Source of the DNA: Eledone cirrhosa
Taxonomy: Eukaryota
Length of the DNA: 64,000 nucleotides
Direction of reading: 5' to 3'
Assembly (NCBI GenBank): GCA_964016885.1
Contig: OZ024761.1
Span: 25,854,001 to 25,918,000 of the forward strand
Shown here: piece after piece, positions 5,438 to 63,660 of the stretch
How the letters are laid out: the number at the start of each line of letters is the position of its first letter
Numbering within the stretch: position 1 is the first letter of the stretch
The notes under the pieces: model-generated
Told to the model about the DNA's origin: nothing
The model's database searches: none
The model's input: the letters and a program-made list of their open reading frames with translations, nothing else
Translations under genes and position numbers: made by a program

Positions 5438-5519
5438 TATATATATATATAACAAATTACAAAATATGAGTAAATAATAGGCATATATTTGCCTATTATT
5501 TACCTATAATTTCTTCAAA

Positions 5520-5612
5520 GTCCCGACTTCAGTTTCGCTGATCCGTGTGCAACGGTTTATACATTATAAAAATGCATCATTGGAGCGAGCTTGATACAGC
5601 TTATCAAGAGAC
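5520..5612 (-). ncRNA. Type I hammerhead ribozyme, U3-A8 variant
   Basis: Minus strand: gtctc-TTGATAA-gctg...cagc-GAAAC-tgaa-GTC-gggac; 5-bp stem I, long loop 2; inside a TA-flanked element at ~5451-5735. Confidence 0.65.
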
Positions 5613-5734
5613 CCCTCTCAGAAAACTGGACTATCTATTGACGCGTTCGTAGCAAGTGAGAATATCTCGAGAGGCGGGGGGAATGAATTAACACGTGATA
5701 CAGTGGTCAAAAATAGGTCTTTCGTGCGCAGTAA

Positions 5735-5772
<38 letters not shown>

Positions 5773-6468: not shown

Positions 6469-6684
6469 GTATAATAAACCATACAATATAATTACCTCAT
6501 TACCAGAGGTTTCCCGAATAAGACGAATACGAAAAACGTCCTCATTCGTTCATCGGACAAGGCAATTTAAAACATATTGAAATATTTTAAATTGCCTTGT
6601 CCGATGAACGAATGAGGACGTTTTTCGTATTCGTCTTATTCGGGAAACCTCTGGTAATGAGGTATATTGTATTGTTTATTATAC
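6469..6684. mobile_element. Palindromic PLE-like fragment with mirrored HHR copies
   Basis: ~100-bp inverted arms (6469-6572 / 6585-6684), TA-flanked. Confidence 0.75.
6595..6662 (+). ncRNA. Type I hammerhead-like motif (U4C variant)
   Basis: ccttgt-CCGATGA-long stem II-GAAACC-tct-GGTA-atgagg; 6-bp stem I including G-U pairs. Mirror copy on minus strand at 6495-6562. Confidence 0.6.
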
Positions 6685-6788
6685 TTTAAATTTAGCTCTG
6701 GTACTTACATAAAGCACTCTTCACTCCTATGACTTTTTCAATGGAAACATCAATACATATATATATATATATATATATATGGAAGGAA

Positions 6789-6997
6789 CGATCGACATTC
6801 GTCAAATCGGACCGAGGGAACAATGTTTCCGTTGGTCTTTCCAATTACTAATACTACCTATCGGTCGCAACTCCGGGTAGAAGGAGCAACGTGAAATAAA
6901 GTGTCTTCCTCAACGACATAACGCATCGCCTGGTCCATGAATTGAACTCACAACCTTACGATTGCGAATCCAATTCTCTAACCACTCGGCCACACGG
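6789..6997 (-). mobile_element. SINE family B (tRNA-derived, CORE-like)
   Basis: Six homologous copies in the window; minus strand has gagtggttagag A-box and gagttcaattc B-box, and the family carries gtccttgggcaagacactt, resembling the CORE domain. Confidence 0.85.
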
Positions 6998-7834: not shown

Positions 7835-7914
7835 ACAGAAACGAAAACCAACCAAACAATGAGCGTGTTCTGTTATTATTTCTGGCAATATTATTACAAC
7901 AATATATATATAAC

Positions 7915-8128
7915 AGTTGATCAACTTTCGTTAAATCGGACCGAGGAAACAATGTTCCCGTTGGTCTTTTCAATTGCTAATACTTTCTATCGGTCACAAC
8001 TCCAGGTAGAAGCAGCAACATGAAATAAAGTGTCTTGCCGAAGGAAACACATTGCCCAGCCCAGCAATCGAACTAACATCACAACCTCATCGTTGACAGT
8101 CCACTTCTATAACCATTCAGCCTCGCCT
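7915..8128 (-). mobile_element. SINE family B copy
   Basis: aaatcggaccgaggaaacaatgtt...tcggtcacaactccaggtagaag homology. Confidence 0.85.
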
Positions 8129-11056: not shown

Positions 11057-11243
11057 TATTTTATCTGATGAAAGCGCACCAAGATTTGCTTGGTCGCCCT
11101 TGGAATATATATAATTGTTTCTAATTTAGGCACAAGGCCAGCAATTATCCAGTGCATTACTGGTACTTTATTTTATCGACCCTGTAAGGATGAAAGGCAA
11201 AGTCAACCTCGGCGGGATTTGAACTCATATATATAATAAAATA
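11057..11243 (+). ncRNA. Hammerhead-like motif interrupted by a SINE
   Basis: After removing the SINE and one TSD: tattttat-CTGATGA-stem II (accaag/cttggt)-GGAA-TATAT-ATA-ataaaata; 8-bp stem I. Paralog at 32041-32110 has GAAA. Confidence 0.6.
11116..11226 (-). mobile_element. 5'-truncated SINE family A with 11-bp TSD
   Basis: TSD atatatataat at 11105-11115 and 11227-11237. Confidence 0.85.
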
Positions 11244-11406
11244 AATATGGTTTTATAAATATAGTTTCCATTTATTGTTATCTTGGAATATTTACTCCAG
11301 TAAATTGTTGAGTGCTCTATAACAGTTATAAACATTTATGTTTGTCGGAATTCCAACAAATTAAATACAACTCCTACATTATATATATATATATATATAT
11401 ATATAT

Positions 11407-14484: not shown

Positions 14485-14521
<37 letters not shown>

Positions 14522-14524
<3 letters not shown>

Positions 14525-14680
14525 ATATATAAGATCAAAAGATGGTTAAATGAGTTCCATGGAACTCTTTTAACCATCTTTTTATCTTATATATTATTTA
14601 TACTCCAGTCCTACAAACTGTAGAGTGCTTCTTATCCGATATCTGCATTGCTTTATTGTACTACAATAAAACACACCTCC

Positions 14681-14683
<3 letters not shown>
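14522..14683. mobile_element. TA-embedded short element with fold-back end (family F)
   Basis: Inverted repeat 14522-14597; reverse-orientation homolog at 28907-29054. Confidence 0.75.
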
Positions 14684-15249: not shown

Positions 15250-15284
<35 letters not shown>

Positions 15285-15634
15285 ATTTCCTAGGAAGGGT
15301 AAAGGAAAGGAGAGTGCTCTATATATGCTACAGAGCTATTTAATTATCTAATAAACAAATTAAGACATTTATACCATTTACCAAATGTTTTACGAAGATA
15401 ATCTTCGTGAAACCTTTGGTCACTCGAATAATTGTCTTATGTTCTTTATTACATAATTATATATATATATATATATAATTTTTTTTTAGTATATGTTGGT
15501 TGTTTACCGATACCTCAGTATGCTGATTGGAGCAATCGACGAAGTACGTAGGTTCGTTTGGTTACTCCGGAGTAATGTAAAATAAAGTAATTAAGTCAAA
15601 TTTTTCAAAATTTGGCTTCCTTTATTAAAGATGT

Positions 15635-15689
15635 ACTGCTATATATATTTCGGTGACAGCCATCATTGGCTGTGACTTCTTCAGGCAGT
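15635..15689 (-). ncRNA. Minimal type I hammerhead ribozyme
   Basis: Minus strand: actgc-CTGAAGA-agtcacagcca(atga)tggctgtcacc-GAAA-TATAT-ATA-gcagt, then AATAAA; palindromic stem III; in a TA-flanked element at ~15480-16000. Confidence 0.85.
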
Positions 15690-24016: not shown

Positions 24017-24216
24017 GTCGATCGTCAAATAGGACCGAGGAAGCAATGTTTCCATTTCTCTTTCCAATTGCTAATACTTTCTATCGGTCGCAACTCCAGG
24101 TAGAATGAGCAAAGTGAAATAAAGTGTCTTGCCCAAGGACATAACGCATCGTCCGCTCCGGGAATCGACATCACGATTAAGAGTCTAATTCTCTAACTAC
24201 TCAGCTACGCGCCTTC
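24017..24216 (-). mobile_element. SINE family B copy
   Basis: Homology to the other copies. Confidence 0.85.
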
Positions 24217-24260: not shown

Positions 24261-24263
<3 letters not shown>

Positions 24264-24468
24264 AACGAGTAGGACACCGACGGCTGAGCTCAAGCCGTTT
24301 CGACCGCTAGTTCTGGACTAAAAAAAAAAAAAATGTTTTTTGTAGTCCAGAATTAGCCGTCAAAACGGCTTGAGCTCAGCCGTCGGTGTCCTACTCGTTC
24401 CTACTACCCTAAGTATTGAGTACTTTGGTGCGTTATGGTCCATCTGGTTCCTTACCCCATTTCCTTCG

Positions 24469-24470
<2 letters not shown>
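24261..24470 (+). mobile_element. Fold-back element family E
   Basis: Inverted arms around ctggact...agtccag; ends ttccttcgtt(at)n; five copies in the window. Confidence 0.8.
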
Positions 24471-28908: not shown

Positions 28909-29048
28909 AGGAGGTGAGTTTTATTTTAGTACAATAAAGCAATGCAGATATCGGATAAGAAGCACTCTACAGTTTGTAGGACTGGAGTATACATAATATA
29001 TAAGAACAAAAAATGGTTAAAATAACTCTTTTAACCATCTTTTCTTCT

Positions 29049-29846: not shown

Positions 29847-30054
29847 AACGAAGGAAATGTGGTAAGGAACCAGGTGGACCAAAACGCACCAAAGTACTCA
29901 ATACTTGAGGTAGTAGAGTGGGTAATAGGAACCAGTAAGACCCCGACAGCTGAGCTCAAACCGTTTCAACGGCTAATTCTGGACTCAGAATTAGCCGTCC
30001 AGAATTAGCCGTCGAAACGGCTTGAGCTCAGCTGTCGGGGTCTTACTGGTTCCT
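29847..30054 (-). mobile_element. Fold-back element family E
   Basis: Same body; inverted arms with a 14-bp duplication cagaattagccgtc at the centre. Confidence 0.8.
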
Positions 30055-30215: not shown

Positions 30216-30367
30216 AAGTGTGGTAAATAACCAGGTGGACAATAAAGAACCAGAGTACTCGATAATTAGGTTAGTAGAGTGCGTAATAGAAGAAGAATCA
30301 GGACCCCGACGGCTGATCTCCGGCCGTTTCGATAGCTAGATCCGGAGCTCAGCCGTCGGCGTCCTGG

Positions 30368-30368
<1 letters not shown>
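30216..30368 (-). mobile_element. Diverged family E copy
   Basis: accaggtggac...gagtactc...ggaccccgacggctga / tcagccgtcgg. Confidence 0.65.
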
Positions 30369-30436
<68 letters not shown>

Positions 30437-31305: not shown

Positions 31306-31514
31306 GCATGCTTGTGTGGTTAGAGAGTTAGATTAGCAATTGTAAGGTAGTGAGTTCTATTCCCTGAGCGGGCGATACGTTATGTCCTTGGGTAAAACAA
31401 TTTATTTCGCTTTGCTCATTCTACCTGGAGTTGCGACCGATAGAGAGTATTTACAATTGGAAAGACCAATGGAAACACTGTTTCCTCGGTCCGATTTGAC
31501 AAAAATCGATCGAC
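31306..31514 (+). mobile_element. SINE family B copy
   Basis: gtggttagagag...gagttctattcc...tgtccttgggtaaaaca. Confidence 0.85.
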
Positions 31515-31840: not shown

Positions 31841-31883
31841 ATAGACAATTATTCAATATATAAATAAATAAATAGATGCTATT

Positions 31884-32036
31884 GTTAATTAATAAATAAA
31901 TTATCTAATACCTTAACACTTCACTCAAAGTAAAATATTTTGTTTTAAACATTTTCTGAGTTAGAAAATGTTTAAAACAAAATATTTTACTTTGTGTGAA
32001 GTGTTAAGTTATTAGATAATTTATTTATTAATTAAC
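31884..32036. repeat. AT-rich palindrome, ~74-bp arms, 5-bp spacer
   Basis: gttaattaataaataaattatctaata...attttct gagtt agaaaat...tattagataatttatttattaattaac. Confidence 0.9.
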
Positions 32037-32129
32037 CATAATTTGCCTTGGTTGCCCTAGAAATATGTATAATAAAATAAATATGGCTTTATAAATATAT
32101 TTTCCATTTATTAATATGGTGTGTGTGTG

Positions 32130-35357: not shown

Positions 35358-35424
35358 GGGCTGATGAGATTTAATTAGATTGAAACTTGTATCCTGATGA
35401 GATTTAATTAGAATGAAACTTGTC
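35358..35424 (+). ncRNA. Two tandem minimal hammerhead cores (33-nt period)
   Basis: ggg-CTGATGA-gatttaattagatt-GAAAC-tt-GTA-tc-CTGATGA-gatttaattagaat-GAAAC-tt-GTC. Confidence 0.7.
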
Positions 35425-36121
35425 AGAGTTTTCTACGATCCTTGAAAAAATTTGAATGAAATTAATATTGCTCTTCGACTTAATATGTTTATCACCCTGG
35501 TCTAGCCGTAATTATAATTCTAAGTAATTAAATTTCAAAGATGTCTTCCCTTCAGCAATGAGGAAATTTGATTAAGATCAAGCTTTGAAACATTGTTTTC
35601 CGAATGCTCAAATTTAAGTTAGTTTTAATTAACTGAAGTTGCTGCTTTTTCTCAGTACACCAAGGATATTGGTAGTCTCATAATCAAATAAGTACTAAGT
35701 AGTTCATATGTTAAAACTTTTCACCTTAATTTGTCTTAGCACTGCCAAAATAGATAAGTGCACATTGTATTTATGTATTACTGTCCCGTAACTCCTGATA
35801 GAGTCATAGGTGCGCAGTATTGACATACGGCGTTTCTAGGGCGGTATTCAAGTCCTGAATACAGTAGATATCTTCCAGAGAAGGATAAAGAGAGTGATAA
35901 ATTTCTGTATTAATTACAGCCGACATGCCTTTTTGTATTAGTTGATGTCTTTGATGGAAAGGGTCTCATTCTAAAAACCGCATCTCTTGTGAAGTAACTG
36001 CCTGGCGGTTGATTTCCTTAGGGCTACAACTTCGACTCTTAACTATTATTGGGCTTGAACTTCCAGTGAAGGTTAGGAAGTGAGCGAGAGCAAGTCAGAA
36101 AGAGATATAAAGGAGAAATTG

Positions 36122-37896: not shown

Positions 37897-38243
<347 letters not shown>

Positions 38244-38260
38244 ATTTATATATATATATT

Positions 38261-38293
<33 letters not shown>

Positions 38294-38370
38294 ATTTATA
38301 TATATATATATTTATATATATATATTTATATATATATATATATATATTTATATATTTATATATATATATT

Positions 38371-38457
<87 letters not shown>

Positions 38458-38472
38458 ATTTATATATATATA

Positions 38473-38637
<165 letters not shown>

Positions 38638-38640
38638 ATT

Positions 38641-38700
<60 letters not shown>

Positions 38701-38750
38701 TATATATATATTTATATATATATTTATATATATATATTTATATATATATT

Positions 38751-38789
<39 letters not shown>

Positions 38790-38803
38790 ATATATATATA
38801 TTT

Positions 38804-38838
<35 letters not shown>

Positions 38839-38841
38839 ATT

Positions 38842-39006
<165 letters not shown>

Positions 39007-39009
39007 ATT

Positions 39010-39046
<37 letters not shown>

Positions 39047-39070
39047 ATATATATTTATATTATATATATA

Positions 39071-39117
<47 letters not shown>

Positions 39118-39136
39118 ATTTATATATATATATATT

Positions 39137-39175
<39 letters not shown>

Positions 39176-39194
39176 ATTTATATATATATATATT

Positions 39195-39251
<57 letters not shown>

Positions 39252-39254
39252 ATT

Positions 39255-39399
<145 letters not shown>

Positions 39400-39512
39400 A
39401 TTTATATATATATTTATATATATATATTTATATATATATATATTTATATATATTTATATATATATATATTTATATATATATATTATTATATATATTTATA
39501 TATATATATATT

Positions 39513-39573
<61 letters not shown>

Positions 39574-39593
39574 ATATTTATAATATATATATA

Positions 39594-39666
<73 letters not shown>

Positions 39667-39669
39667 ATT

Positions 39670-39702
<33 letters not shown>

Positions 39703-39717
39703 TTATATATATATATT

Positions 39718-39878
<161 letters not shown>

Positions 39879-39880
39879 TA

Positions 39881-40035
<155 letters not shown>

Positions 40036-40036
40036 T

Positions 40037-40189
<153 letters not shown>

Positions 40190-40290
40190 TTATATATATA
40201 TATTTATATATATATATTTATATATATATATATATATTTATATATATTTATATATATATATTTATATATATATATTTATATATATATATT

Positions 40291-40322
<32 letters not shown>

Positions 40323-40383
40323 CATATATATATATATATTTATATATATATACATATATATATTTATATATATAATTATATAT

Positions 40384-40436
<53 letters not shown>

Positions 40437-40443
40437 ATTATAT

Positions 40444-40479
<36 letters not shown>

Positions 40480-40664
40480 AATAATTATATATATATATAT
40501 AATATTATATATATATATATATATATATAAATATATATATAAATATATATAATATATATATATAAATATATATATATAAATATATATAATATATATATAA
40601 TATATATATATAAATATATATATATAAATATATATAATATATATATATATAAATAAATATATAT

Positions 40665-40827
<163 letters not shown>

Positions 40828-40831
40828 ATAT

Positions 40832-41115
<284 letters not shown>

Positions 41116-41117
41116 AT

Positions 41118-41396
<279 letters not shown>

Positions 41397-41404
41397 TATA
41401 TAAT

Positions 41405-41443
<39 letters not shown>

Positions 41444-41444
41444 A

Positions 41445-41519
<75 letters not shown>

Positions 41520-41529
41520 ATATATATAT

Positions 41530-41560
<31 letters not shown>

Positions 41561-41570
41561 ATATATATAT

Positions 41571-41616
<46 letters not shown>

Positions 41617-41634
41617 TATATATATATAATATAT

Positions 41635-41700
<66 letters not shown>

Positions 41701-41711
41701 ATAATATATAT

Positions 41712-41764
<53 letters not shown>

Positions 41765-41781
41765 ATATATATATAATATAT

Positions 41782-41956
<175 letters not shown>

Positions 41957-41966
41957 TATAATATAT

Positions 41967-42062
<96 letters not shown>

Positions 42063-42106
42063 TATATATAATATATATATATATAATATATATATATATA
42101 TATAAT

Positions 42107-42161
<55 letters not shown>

Positions 42162-42169
42162 TATATATA

Positions 42170-42369
42170 NNNNNNNNNNNNNNNNNNNNNNNNNNNNNNN
42201 NNNNNNNNNNNNNNNNNNNNNNNNNNNNNNNNNNNNNNNNNNNNNNNNNNNNNNNNNNNNNNNNNNNNNNNNNNNNNNNNNNNNNNNNNNNNNNNNNNNN
42301 NNNNNNNNNNNNNNNNNNNNNNNNNNNNNNNNNNNNNNNNNNNNNNNNNNNNNNNNNNNNNNNNNNNNN
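42170..42369. other. Assembly gap (200 N)
   Basis: Run of N. Confidence 1.
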
Positions 42370-42373
42370 AGTA

Positions 42374-43066
<693 letters not shown>

Positions 43067-43067
43067 T

Positions 43068-43098
<31 letters not shown>

Positions 43099-43105
43099 AT
43101 ATATT

Positions 43106-43409
<304 letters not shown>

Positions 43410-43429
43410 TATATATATTTATATATATA

Positions 43430-43630
<201 letters not shown>

Positions 43631-43631
43631 A

Positions 43632-43690
<59 letters not shown>

Positions 43691-43693
43691 AAT

Positions 43694-43744
<51 letters not shown>

Positions 43745-43745
43745 T

Positions 43746-43890
<145 letters not shown>

Positions 43891-43911
43891 ATATTTATAT
43901 ATATATAAATT

Positions 43912-43984
<73 letters not shown>

Positions 43985-44016
43985 ATATATTTATATATAA
44001 TATATATATATATATT

Positions 44017-55181: not shown

Positions 55182-55499
55182 GCACTTGGAATGATAAGAA
55201 TTAGAACTGAAAATACCTGGGGAACCATCTCTAAAAAATCTAGAGAACATATTACTGATTGGCAGACCATGTCCTGAGAAGTGGGACATTATTTATTTAA
55301 AAACCGTACAAAGACATTTACTGGTGCTTATACCCTTAAAGCATCATTTGTATAACAATTGATTGTCAAATATATATATTATCAAATTCTACCTGGTGTG
55401 TCAGGTTGACACTTGGCAAGATATTGGAAAGCAACATAATCCAAAGGAAGTTTCAAATAATATTAATAAGGTTAATGAAGTTATTATTAACTTCGAATA

Positions 55500-55735
55500 G
55501 TCTATTTTGCCGGTCCCGGTAAAATAGACAGCTAGGCTATTTTGCCAGTAAATATAAATAGTGTTAGGTTTACGGCTACATTTTAAATTATCTTAACAAT
55601 TGGTGCTGAAGATAAAAAAACATCTGTGTTAAATCCGTGTTGTTATTTTTAATATTACCTCCTTTGATAATAATAAAAATATTTACCGGCAAATTAGCAT
55701 GGGGGTCTATTTTACAGTGACCGGCAAAGTAGCCT
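55500..55735. mobile_element. MITE with ~55-bp imperfect TIRs built from ctattttgccgg subrepeats
   Basis: gtctattttgccggtc...gtaaatat versus atatttaccggcaaa...gaccggcaaagtagcc. Confidence 0.6.
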
Positions 55736-55859
55736 CTTCCTTTATATTTTGAAAATTCTGGTATAATTTGATTCATCCTAAGACTTAAATTTCTTATAAA
55801 CAAATATCTAAGTATATATACTGAAAATAATTTCGTTGAACTAAATATTAATTTGCCTG

Positions 55860-56125
55860 CAAAATAAAATATTAAAGTGTGTTCTAGGTTATCTCTCTTG
55901 GTTTATCTTCAGGCCAACTCCTAAATATTTACATCTATGTTATGTTTATTACCATAAAATATAAACTTTTGTTGTATATTATCTCTCTCGGTATTTCGGT
56001 AGAAACATTCTAGTTATTTACCTCTAAATGTTTATTACCATAAAATATAAACGTTTCTTTTAATTTATCTCTCTGTTTTTCTTCAGGACAACTCGTAGAT
56101 ATTTATCTATATGTTACGTTTAATT
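55860..56125. repeat. Degenerate ~85-bp tandem repeat, about 3 copies
   Basis: ttatctctct...tgtttattaccataaaatataaac recurs. Confidence 0.65.
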
Positions 56126-56874: not shown

Positions 56875-56953
56875 GATGTGTTGGTGTAAATGGTAGCACA
56901 GTGGTCCGGATAACCAAAGATGTGGGTTCGGCTCCCATGTACGTCAATACTCA
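56875..56953 (+). mobile_element. tRNA-like SINE head (family C)
   Basis: ggtgtaaatggtagcac...gggttcggctccc; second copy on minus strand at 59688-59760. Confidence 0.55.
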
Positions 56954-57421
56954 TCAATTTTAAATAGAACTTTTGCATATATATATGTATATATACATAT
57001 ATATATACATATATATATATATACATAATAATCCTTATCGATTCCTCTTCGGATCGGATTTCTACTGACACATGGATCGACATTCATCACAAGGGCCGAC
57101 ATATAGGGTACAATATAGTAGACGAGGTCAGTGGAAGTTTTATACAGAAATCGAGTAAAAATATAAAAATAACAATAAACCAGAAAAATACAAACACAAT
57201 ATTTATCTATCTATCTATATATATATATATATCTATATATATATATTAAAATATATATACACATATATATATATATCTATATATATATATTAAAATATAT
57301 ATACACATATATATATATATCTATATATATATATTAAAATAACAGATTAAAGTTTAGGCAACATTTGCTTTAAATTTAATCTGTTATTTTATTATATATT
57401 TGCTCTAGAGTTCTTATATAT

Positions 57422-57461
<40 letters not shown>

Positions 57462-59056: not shown

Positions 59057-59058
<2 letters not shown>

Positions 59059-59228
59059 CGAAGGAGTTGTGGGGTAAGGAACCAGATGGACCATAACGCA
59101 CCAGAGTACTCAATATTTAGGGTAGTAGGAGAATATATGACCCCAACGGCAGAGCTCAAGCTGTTTCGACGGCTATTTCTGAGTCCAGAAATAGCTGTCG
59201 AAACGGCTTCAGTTCTGCCGTCGGAGGC
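59057..59228 (-). mobile_element. Fold-back element family E
   Basis: Same body, hairpin centre ttctgagtccagaa. Confidence 0.8.
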
Positions 59229-59239
59229 ATATATTTTCA

Positions 59240-59281
<42 letters not shown>

Positions 59282-59283
59282 CA

Positions 59284-59488
59284 ATCGATCGACTTTCGTC
59301 AAATCGGACCGAGGAAACAATGTTTCCGTTTGTCTTTCCAATTGCTAATACTATCTATCGGTCGCAACTCCAGGTAGAAGGAACAACGAGAAATAAAGTG
59401 TCTTGCCCAAAGATATCACGCATCGCCGGGTCAGGGATTCGAACTTACAATATCATGATTGCGAATCCAATTGTATAACGACTCAACC
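59284..59488 (-). mobile_element. SINE family B copy
   Basis: Homology to the other copies. Confidence 0.85.
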
Positions 59489-59912
59489 ATACATATATAT
59501 ACACATAGGGATGCCCTTCAAGGATGGCCTTACTGGAGAATACGCAGCTTCTTGAAACAACAGTATGTTGAGTTACAATTCCAGAATTTTATATAGCTAC
59601 TACCATTTGCTTACGCTGTATTTGACTAAATGAAATTAGTCTGTTAGTTGAGATTTTTAAAAAAAGCCCTCTTATTGGAAGAAAGCATGAGCGTTGACGT
59701 ACATGGGATACGAACCCACATCTTTGTTTTGCCGTACCAATATTTTAACTAATAGACTCATTTTATTAGACATAAGAAAATGTTACTTGGTATTTTTTTC
59801 AAATCTTCGCTGTTTATAAACAAAATATGCTTTGTATCTCTCTCTCCCCCTCTCTCTTTTATATATATATATACAAACACACACATATGTATATACAAAT
59901 GCACAGGCATGC

Positions 59913-60391: not shown

Positions 60392-60628
60392 GGCCTTTTG
60401 ATTAATAAAAGGCCTCGGGCGCACCCGTACTACACCGATGTCCTGTAATTCAGCGCCGAAACATCGATTCGGGATATTTTACAGCTGACGATGGAAACAC
60501 CTTTCTTCCTTTCTCCTCCTGTTCCGTCCTAACCACCATCCTAAACCTTCTTTTTAGTAACCACACAGCTCCTTTCGTTTCGTAACTTTATATATATATA
60601 TATATACATACACACTTATATGTAGAAG

Positions 60629-60668
<40 letters not shown>

Positions 60669-60861
60669 TACGAAACGAAAGGAGCTGTGTGGTTACTAAA
60701 AAGAAGGTTTAGGATGGTGGTTAGGACGGAACAGGAGGAGAAAGGAAGAAAGGTGTTTCCATCGTCAGCTGTAAAATATCCCGAACCGATGTTTCGGCGC
60801 TGAATTACAGGACATCGGTGTAGTTCGGGTGCGCCCGAGGCCTTTTATTAATCAAAAGGCC

Positions 60862-61432: not shown

Positions 61433-61641
61433 AACGAAGGAAATGTGGTAAGGAACCAGGTGGACCATAACGCACCAAAGTACTCAATACTTAGGGTAGT
61501 AGAGTAGGTAATAGGAACGAGTAGGACCCCGACGGCTGAGCTCAAGCCGTTTCGACGGCTAATTCTGGACTAAAAACATTTTTTAGTCAAGAATTAGCCG
61601 TCGAAACGGCTTGAGCTCAGCCATCGGGCTCCTACTCGTTG

Positions 61642-61642
<1 letters not shown>
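61433..61642 (-). mobile_element. Fold-back element family E
   Basis: Same body, spacer aaaaacattttt. Confidence 0.8.
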
Positions 61643-61705
<63 letters not shown>

Positions 61706-62070
61706 GTAGAACAGTGGAGGGTTATATCTGTAGTAGTAGCGCAATGAGTCGATGGGACGAGTTTGGTAGAAGTAGTTCCACAACAGTTAGTTTACCATAC
61801 GGGAACAAATGTTTCCCCTTACGCGGATACCTAGCTGAGAATCCGCGCATAATCGCTCCACATAATGATGTATTGTCTTCGCTTTTTTCCGTTTATTGCC
61901 AGGGAACGTCTTCATGAAGCAAAGTATCGTCTTCCTGTTTTCCTTCGGTTGCAACGTTTTTCGAAATATTTACTTCTGCGTTCGCAGATTGATTTTCTTT
62001 TAGCTTCAGAAGATCCTGTTAAGGGTGAAAGCAGCGATTCTTTGCTTATATTAATAAATGTATATATAGG

Positions 62071-62278
62071 AACGATCGACTTTCATCAAATCGGACCGAG
62101 GAAACGATGTTTCCATTGGTCTTTCCAATTGTAATACTATCTATCGGTCGCAACTCCAGGTAGAAGGAGCAACATGAAATAAAGTGTCTTGCTCAAGGAT
62201 ATAATGTATCGCCCTCTCTGGGAATCGAACTCACAACCTCACGATTGTGAATCCAATTATCTAACCACTCAGCCACAC
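62071..62278 (-). mobile_element. SINE family B copy
   Basis: Homology to the other copies. Confidence 0.85.
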
Positions 62279-63660
62279 AGAGAGTATGTGTGTGTGTGTC
62301 TTTGTGTCTATCTGTATGTGGTATATGTACGTGTATGTCTTTGGAGTTGTCTGTCTACATGTGTGTTTGCGTATGTATTTTATTGAGCTCCATACCAAAC
62401 CAGAATAGTATTTCCTTCTACCACAACCACGAAGACAGCGGCGGTGGCGACTCCGGGCGGGAGAGCAAAAATTGAGATAACTGCATTACTTAAAAAACCC
62501 AAAATATGGAACCTCTTTAACGAAACGACGCCAGTAAATTTTGTCCAGACTCTTTATCGATTCTAAGAACTTATCCTGTGAAAATCCGTTAACAGTATAG
62601 TCAAATTGAAGAAAACTAAGCGTGATGTAATTTTGCCTAGTGTTGCAGTTTATCCCCTACGGTGAAATACCGTTACAATAGCAGTAAATTTCAATGCAAG
62701 TGTTATGTAATCCCAGTCTTGTATTAAGCACATTTTAAACATTGGACAGTTATGTTTCATTAATTTAAAATTAAATCTGTCAACTGTAGAGTAAATTGTT
62801 AAATTACCTTTAAAGTACAAGAGAACTAACGCGCATAAATACGGATGGCCAATATATTATATCCAACTCAATTTAGTTATTCCAATCTCTCTCTTTTTCT
62901 AGTACTCGCACACACACACGCTCTCTCTTTCTATCTATCTATCTATCTCTCTCACACTACTTTTTTCTCTCTTTTCATCTTCCCCGCTTTATCTCATTCT
63001 CTTTTCTCTTTCGTTCTTTCTCTCTCTATATATATATATGGGGTGGGGTGAATATATATTTATATATATATGAATCTATTGTTGTTTGAGATTCTTTTTC
63101 TCCGTTTGGAATTCGTACATTTTCTATAAAGATTTTCTAAGTATCCTGCGCTTCGATAGGCATTTATATAAATACATACATACATACATACATACATACA
63201 TACGTGTGTGGGGGGGGGGTATGTGTGTGTGTGTGTGTGTGTTTGGTGTGTGAGGGAGGGGTTTGTTTGTACTCACAAATCACATGATATAAAAATAATA
63301 CAAAATATAACATATACGTGGAGATTAATATGAATGTTTTTCGTAGCAACTGAAGCACTGAAGCGTTGGTTGGAGAAAATCCAGAGGCAGAACAGCAGAA
63401 TAATCCACAAGCATGGCTACATGGATCATGCATCTGCACACACTACTGAGCAAAGAACCTCCTCTCCCTGAAAAAACAAGGATTTCTAGGCATGCTGTGT
63501 TCTCTAATTGCGGTCTTCTTATAGTGAACACACGAAATCTCTTTACACACAGACAAATACAAATATAAGTATATATGTTTACACATATACACATATAGAC
63601 ATATACACACATACATACGCAAGGGTTTAAACAATCTCTCTCTCTCTATCTATGATTCTA

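Follow-up and report, generated by a model that had tools for sequence, protein, structure and literature searches.

Five copies of a short repeat, family E, lie in a stretch of 64,000 nt of Eledone cirrhosa contig OZ024761.1 (25,854,001 to 25,918,000, forward strand; hereafter the window) and look like tail-end insertions of a Penelope-like retrotransposon (PLE) in (TA)n microsatellites (Table 1). They are found where the original prediction had placed them, the 61433 copy matching the bodies of the other four by BLAST with 75–88% identity (E 8e-74 to 9e-29). A sensitive nhmmer search of the window recovers exactly 10 arms, five long and five short, with the next matches at E>3, and reveals no solo or non-inverted copy. 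The long arms share 76–97% pairwise identity. Inverted-repeat scores of the five copies amount to 112, 104, 42, 66 and 107, compared to maxima of only 17–20 in shuffled controls (eight per segment).

Table 1. Family E copies, their characteristic elements and insertions of the same layout, in window positions.
Feature	Position	Strand	Parts and remarks
Family E copy 1 ("24261")	24262–24469	+	(TA)n on both sides; short arm 24262–24319, junction 24320–24343, long arm 24344–24401, tail 24402–24469
Family E copy 2 ("29847")	29848–30053	-	Tail 29848–29927, long arm 29928–29985, duplicated junction 29986–29996, short arm 29997–30053
Family E copy 3 ("30216")	30217–30388	-	Most diverged copy; tail 30217–30287, long arm 30288–30346, short arm 30342–30366 via TCCGG microhomology, then (CT)n
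Family E copy 4 ("59057")	59058–59241	-	Tail 59058–59128, long arm 59129–59181, flipped 4-nt loop 59182–59185 (part of the short arm), short arm to 59241
Family E copy 5 ("61433")	61434–61642	-	Long arm equals the family consensus; tail 61434–61513, long arm 61514–61576, loop 61577–61579, short arm 61580–61642
3' half of type I hammerhead	61531–61554	-	C11.1, GAAA, 6-bp stem III, GUC site
Tail hairpin	61479–61505	-	RCTC-stem-loop-stem-NN-GAGY-ACT; likeness to Hydra-clade PLE 3' ends by eye
Unrelated family, same layout	15281–15457	-	57-nt arms, 62-nt tail with the same hairpin
Unrelated family, same layout	6469–6756	+	103-nt arms, GAAA-stem III-UA, 72-nt tail
Unrelated two-copy family, copy a	14520–14681	+	37-nt arms, turn at a CCATGG palindrome, same tail hairpin
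Unrelated two-copy family, copy b	28909–29048	-	20-nt arms; short arm 5 nt further inward

Layout of family E and its surroundings

On the strand that runs into the tail, a family E copy begins with (TA)n and an antisense short arm, followed past the junction by the sense long arm, the tail and a second (TA)n tract. All five copies comprise an inverted 5'-truncated copy joined head-to-head, a tail of 68–82 nt on one arm only and (TA)n on both flanks, within which a target-site duplication is indiscernible. The end ttccttcgtt(at)n, attributed earlier to four copies or a close variant of it, is exact in three and slightly varied in 59057, while 30216 stops about 10 nt short of it. The differing arm lengths that had been reported are confirmed at the inner end only, as the outer ends are fixed. 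The short arm reaches (TA)n 17 nt past the GUC triplet in three of five copies, at +19 in one and at +31 in another one after a (CT)n expansion; the same native TA ends every short arm, with 8–11 TA dinucleotides past GUC per long arm. Four of the five long arms share one end site, and both outer ends keep the register of the TA repeat.

The layout is shared by other families in the window. Tested against their own shuffles, 12 of the 67 inter-(TA)n segments contain a significant inverted repeat, and in 11 of these 12 one arm lies at most 9 nt from the tract with an unpaired extension on the opposite side. The extension measures 62–106 nt in nine of the 11, i.e., the five family E copies and the insertions at 6469, 14520, 28909 and 15281. 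Further anchored fold-backs occur at 5461–5735 and 57335–57425, with extensions of 223 nt and 34 nt, respectively.

The window DNA is AT-rich and eukaryote-like, and 45% of it is masked as tandem repeats; its density of (TA)n and its SINE-like repeats would be reminiscent of an octopus genome. About 6 kb (38001–44000) are nearly pure A/T with a GC fraction of 0.001, including a 200-N gap at 42170–42369. Among 192 ORFs of at least 45 aa with little simple repeat, Pfam gives no match at the cut-off and no RT or GIY-YIG remnant; two weak matches lie below the cut-off, neither of them an RT or an endonuclease. A Claudin match was rejected as a translated microsatellite. An exact scan of prokaryotic genomes for family E yields 0 matches, as expected, as does the translated long arm used as a protein query aimed at a longer copy. 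An Rfam tRNA match at 56875–56946 (plus strand, 37 bits) passes the gathering score, is partly repeated at 59687–59739 and is either a tRNA pseudogene or a SINE head. A SINE-like family is present in six copies (6784–6981, 7901–8045, 24022–24208, 31308–31514, 59281–59493 and 62057–62279). Two of these adjoin family E copies across (TA)n, and as the relative orientations differ, this points to nesting in shared targets and not to a composite element.

Several other repeats were observed. Two 197-nt copies, 99% identical, lie tail-to-tail around (TA)n at 60392–60861, which is either a recent duplication or an assembly artefact; each starts with a 9-bp mini-hairpin and has a pyrimidine-rich tail like the end of family E. 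An AT-rich palindrome of 161 nt (31880–32040) is 94% symmetric, and the sequence downstream of it resembles the start of a TA-flanked element at 11230–11379 (plus strand) that has the tail hairpin and a short, non-significant fold-back and adjoins a SINE-like repeat. Finally, an element of about 245 nt at 55495–55739 has imperfect terminal inverted repeats of about 60 nt, a MITE-like contrast to family E.

Hammerhead half, tail hairpin and turn

The turn was originally predicted just 5' of GAAAC, as in a hammerhead stem II, and this GAAAC indeed belongs to a type I hammerhead 3' half, carried by both arms, that occurs at the same place in all five loci. Each locus has C-GAAA, a stem III of 5–6 bp, a palindromic loop (TGAGCTC at 61531–61554), GUC and a conserved GGGGTC-like segment. 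In arm shuffles, a stem of at least 6 bp follows GAAA in 166 of 20000 cases (0.8%). C11.1-GAAA, stem III, NUH and a palindromic loop 3 are among the published features of PLE hammerheads (PMC4209133), and all are present in family E. The 5' half is replaced by the inverted arm. A CTGANGA motif, proposed earlier as a target to look for 5' of the turn, is absent from all five copies and from the 300 nt on either side of them. Because the window contains no CTGANGA-bearing master of family E, we infer from position that the turn falls at stem II. Rfam returns no hammerhead at the gathering score in the window, none among the best 150 of its 624 matches and none at E<=10 on copy 5. Together with the absence of CUGANGA, this suggests that family E carries dead hammerhead halves, with the turn at the place expected for stem II/loop II.

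Some observations weigh against a PLE reading. The window contains no master, no CUGANGA in family E, and no RT or GIY-YIG remnant; isolated long arms fold into competing structures and not into stem III; and the family at 6469 turns far 5' of GAAA, at a distance of about 60 nt. The inner arms, taken as a native stem II, would amount to 14–23 bp, which is longer than the 10 bp in the hammerhead at 15684 and than published stem II lengths of 3–9 bp (PMC4209133, PMC8557442). In the insertion at 15281–15457 the turn lies 8 nt 5' of GAAAC in a Hydra-style hammerhead half (GAAACC-TTT-GGTC), and the pair at 14520 and 28909 has no clear hammerhead half; a turn at stem II is thus seen in two of the four families and not in all. 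A full hammerhead core in the 6469 family was rejected, as its CCGATGA lacks a matching stem I and fails the descriptor.

The window contains three CUGANGA-bearing matches outside family E, compared to 0.02 expected, which shows that hammerhead-type motifs occur in the Eledone cirrhosa genome. One of them (15637–15689, minus strand; match at 15684) is a complete minimal type I hammerhead that is not inverted, with a 5-bp stem I, CTGAAGAA, a 10-bp stem II and a palindromic stem III. The other two (417–460 with the match at 420, and 35358–35432 with the match at 35361, both plus strand) have a Hydra-style short stem III, and the latter has a 33-nt tandem duplication of its core. A diverged tandem repeat at 55864–56115 (minus strand), whose two CTGAAGA motifs are separated by about 175 nt, fails the full hammerhead descriptor and is possibly a decayed retrozyme-like tandem.

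The tail contains a hairpin whose descriptor, built partly post hoc, has six matches in the window versus 0.03 expected, two of them at loci outside its design: 15336, in a clear fold-back, and 11294, in a segment below the repeat test. The strict descriptor fits two of five family E copies and its 3' side all five. Hydra-2_Amil, Hydra-2_Ajap and Hydra-1_Crog have a bulged tail hairpin like that of family E, it is loosely present in Hydra-1_Amil, and Hydra-1_Obim and Hydra-1_Ajap have none, all judged by eye from the six consensi in File S7 of PMC8557442. It is present in three of these six published Hydra consensi, where it follows the hammerhead (PMC8557442). Compared by eye, and being our own and not a published criterion, the tail hairpin is a lead to the Hydra clade and not a test of it.

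The turn lies near ctggact, as had been claimed, in four of five copies; in 30216 the short arm begins within the loop of stem III, where the arms join through TCCGG, a microhomology of 5 nt that could equally reflect a later deletion of the palindrome centre. The claim that all spacers differ does not hold. The five junctions fall into three types: an A-run/TG/T-run junction is common to 24261 and 61433, and a CTG-[4 nt]-CAG junction to 29847 and 59057, where 29847 additionally has a 14-nt tandem duplication. In the latter pair the loop is oriented oppositely relative to the tail, reading AGTC in 29847 and GACT in 59057. As AGTCCAG is the sense sequence of family E, it is the tail-less arm that carries the loop in 59057. 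The short arm extends further inward in 59057 and 28909, and the long arm in 29847 and 30216. Independence of each turn, also claimed, is unproven because two pairs share junctions that they may have inherited; the arms are locus-specific, yet the turns may be templated or inherited.

Pairing of the arms and origin of the inverted copy

Ten arms from the five loci were compared over 59 gap-free columns; the arm limits were chosen by eye, and 30216 and 59057 were trimmed at their outer ends. This comparison yields 13 mirrored derived alleles and 19 unmirrored differences; two derived alleles are common to more than one locus and no site is fixed by side. Mirrored alleles are distributed over 59057 (seven), 29847 (three), 30216 (two), 24261 (one) and 61433 (zero), and the two mirrored variants quoted originally, at 24.3 and 29.9 kb, are both present. 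The true pairing of long and short arms ranks first among 120 permutations. The tree joins the arms of the same locus with bootstrap values of 96 (29847), 98 (59057), 84 (30216) and 55 (24261), while those of 61433, without mirrored allele, are not resolved as a pair. Forcing long against short arms costs a dlnL of 33 (AU p=0.00016). Arms thus pair by locus and not by side, as anticipated, and the data support that both arms of one locus derive from the same template.

Clustering by side combined with fixed termini had been named as the pattern that would indicate a MITE. The termini are fixed; the side clustering is rejected, and the termini are not terminal inverted repeats. A DNA transposon derivative, which could be a MITE or else a non-autonomous element of the Helitron/Helentron type whose inverted repeats are asymmetric, would account for the fixed termini, the TA/AT insertion, the small size and the hairpin near one end. 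Nonetheless, it is very improbable: the two termini are not mutual inverted repeats and one of them is a tail, side-fixed sites are absent, and the copies carry half a hammerhead as well as a Hydra-like tail. Helitrons have 5'-TC and CTRR-3' termini, and such ends are absent from family E on either strand. That family E is not a MITE is supported.

The distribution of variants was examined further using 18 of the 19 unmirrored sites; position -17 of 30216 was left out because it lies within the junction microhomology. The 15 core and stem III positions hold 1/13 mirrored and 6/18 unmirrored variants (one-sided p=0.10, weak), the sole mirrored one being a G-U-compatible change. CpG transitions make up 2/13 mirrored and 6/18 unmirrored variants (p=0.24, not significant), and unmirrored changes are split 12:6 over short and long arms (p=0.24, not significant). 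Discordance of tail variants with junction types was dismissed as an argument, since the five tails, compared by eye, give conflicting splits.

Long palindromes are known to undergo gene conversion and replication template switching, by which a loop can also be flipped. An ancestral fixed palindrome with arms homogenised in place in this way would fit the shared junctions and the flipped loop, and no mirrored allele in the sample is common to several loci. On the contrary, 19 unmirrored differences persist (up to seven of 50 sites in 59057), the same layout recurs in several unrelated families, and the mirrored changes are less often CpG transitions, albeit not significantly. In-place conversion alone is less likely, and we consider it improbable; the arms were probably copied at integration.

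The original prediction proposed a programmed self-priming (snap-back) route or recurrent arm conversion. In a snap-back, one tail-primed cDNA would fold at stem II and copy itself, and would then be resolved, e.g., by an endonuclease nick, at a constant position 17 nt beyond GUC. Its premises of same-template arms and a turn 5' of GAAAC stand, and it needs no further assumption to account for mirrored variants and for a single tail in every copy. In 29847 and 30216 the loop comes from the long arm, and 30216 has a 5-bp fold-back microhomology. Palindromes at PLE inverted junctions have been reported (PMC3846280), and endonuclease resolution has been proposed for the tail (PMC8557442). The route fits less well in 59057 and 28909, where inner sequence missing from the long arm is found in the tail-less short arm, and a single snap-back cannot directly give the flipped 59057 loop. 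Moreover, both tail ends act as RT start sites in vitro, with both strands extended (PMC11167929). Snap-back is a close rival of twin priming, although as a full account it remains the less probable of the two and somewhat unlikely in itself.

Twin priming would fit best the in vitro PLE steps, the two fixed ends in TA register and the mirrored variants. Here, a PLE protein would nick (TA)n on both strands. Of the resulting 3'-TA ends, one would prime at the tail end to yield the long arm and the other 17 nt past the GUC site to yield the short arm, using either a single RNA or two sister RNAs as template. The two cDNAs would stall in the stem II/loop II region, the self-complementarity of which would join them head-to-head. 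Such a join implies that donor variants appear in both arms, that CUGANGA is lost and that either arm may supply the loop. Twin priming allows either arm to extend further inward, as do the long arm in two cases and the short arm in two, across two families. Its weak point is that flips are few (two cases) and could be produced by later rearrangement of the palindrome centre. It also needs an extra assumption, an asymmetric complex, to explain the constant single tail, because the start site is the same between strands in vitro (PMC11167929). We lean towards twin priming over snap-back, and give about an even chance to the full reading of family E as the 3' end of a (TA)n-targeting, hammerhead-bearing PLE, forming head-to-head pairs via twin priming. 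The parent element would probably be Hydra-like.

What serves as the donor is a separate question. The palindromic unit of about 200 nt may itself be the donor, as a mini-PLE that is non-autonomous, keeps half a ribozyme in a dead state and inherits its junction, while every insertion copies both arms anew from the long one; such a donor would be compatible with twin priming. All five copies are inverted and stop in a zone of about 25 nt without a longer copy, two pairs have a common junction, the implied 14–23 bp stem exceeds published stem II lengths, and hammerhead cleavage is unneeded for insertion in vitro (PMC11167929). However, the sample is five, and the hammerhead core tends to be free of mirrored variants (p=0.10), as would be expected of donors with a functional ribozyme. 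Shared junctions and the long stem hence favour palindromes, while the core sparing favours full elements; we regard a palindromic donor as rather unlikely. Slightly more doubtful still is the stronger form, in which family E is a self-perpetuating palindromic parasite of PLEs of about 200 nt with two-start-site priming and a flip/flop loop. Opposite-strand primers would use two fixed internal start sites on an RNA that is reverse-transcribed twice, each insertion would rebuild both arms from one template with the loop inherited either way round, the dead hammerhead half would suffice, and several unrelated families in the genome would have converged on this form.

The origin of the inverted copies and tail of PLEs is stated as open in PMC3846280, PMC8557442 and PMC11167929. 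The window contains nine fold-back-plus-tail insertions from four families. If such density is typical, the genome is a very large natural sample, in which snap-back and twin priming are separable by counting loop orientation, the inner reach of the arms and the linkage of mirrored variants. Localising the turn, testing the pairing of arms and observing the flip thus make an open mechanism countable. The family E hairpins of 55–65 bp would, if transcribed, be double-stranded RNA, and hairpins of this type are likely prone to mis-annotation as MITEs or miRNA precursors. Over copy 5, Rfam gives sub-threshold, structure-only miRNA hairpin matches.

Relation to known elements

Judged by layout, target and ribozyme half, a PLE origin of family E is highly probable, and the family is a probable new one of the PLE inverted-insertion kind. 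EN+ PLEs are defined by an ORF with a telomerase-like RT and GIY-YIG, whereas family E is known here from 3' ends alone, with only the last 130–140 nt or so of the element present. For PLEs, the literature already describes an inverted truncated copy, a tail, targeting of (TA)n and palindromes at the junction, and it includes a hypothesis of self-priming. The inverted 5'-truncated copy and the tail are typical of them, the latter being attributed to endonuclease resolution (PMC8557442). The self-priming hypothesis for head-to-head junctions dates from 2013 (Arkhipova et al., PMC3846280), which the original idea of snap-back repeats. In the literature surveyed, largely that outside subscription papers and Repbase, we found neither a tie of the turn to hammerhead stem II nor a proposal of twin priming for PLEs.

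Like family E, Hydra-clade EN+ PLEs target (TA)n and have an optional tail; they have a 3'-terminal type I hammerhead, of which family E shows the 3' half, and in Penelope-13_HM an inverted 5'-truncated copy lies at the 5' end (Craig et al. 2021, PMC8557442). Differences are the tail (68–82 nt versus 30–40 nt quoted for PLEs) and stem III (6 bp with a 7-nt loop versus about 3–4 bp in the Hydra clade; PMC8557442). The 3' end of octopus Hydra-1_Obim, as given in PMC8557442, has no sequence match to family E, and a motif search of the supplement of that paper found none, its lines being broken at 70 letters, which limits sensitivity. The clade is defined by RT/EN motifs (RWK, DKT, CxCX5C, no CCHH), and the window has no such ORF. 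A (TA)n preference also occurs in Naiad and Neptune and is not diagnostic of the Hydra clade. Recently active PLE families are reported in octopus (PMC13282606).

The pLTRs of Adineta vaga Penelope elements show similar head-to-head repeats, junction palindromes and a one-sided tail, but flank long inserts and have target duplications of 8–10 bp; the available text of PMC3846280 contains neither a tie of these junctions to hammerhead stem II nor a locus-pairing test of the arms. PLE hammerhead pairs on opposite strands, 100–700 bp apart, are also described (PMC4209133). Metazoan non-LTR retrozymes resemble family E in being short, non-coding, PLE-related and in having a type I hammerhead (PMC7229834; bioRxiv 10.64898/2026.07.22.740005). 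They are head-to-tail tandems with complete ribozymes, an arrangement not seen in family E, which is dispersed, head-to-head and without CUGANGA. PAc (Poseidon, Anolis), from a different clade than the putatively Hydra-like family E, nicks and extends both target strands in AT-rich DNA in vitro (Frangieh et al. 2024, PMC11167929). Its reverse transcription starts from two adjacent internal sites, the same on either strand, both of which lie 3' of the hammerhead and enclose the 'tail', and hammerhead cleavage is dispensable for insertion; how inverted copies form is not addressed in that paper (PMC11167929). In family E, the two arms would be copies of one and the same segment, each begun at a fixed start site. 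This differs from L1 twin priming, where an inversion arises from two primers on two target strands and the inverted segments do not overlap.
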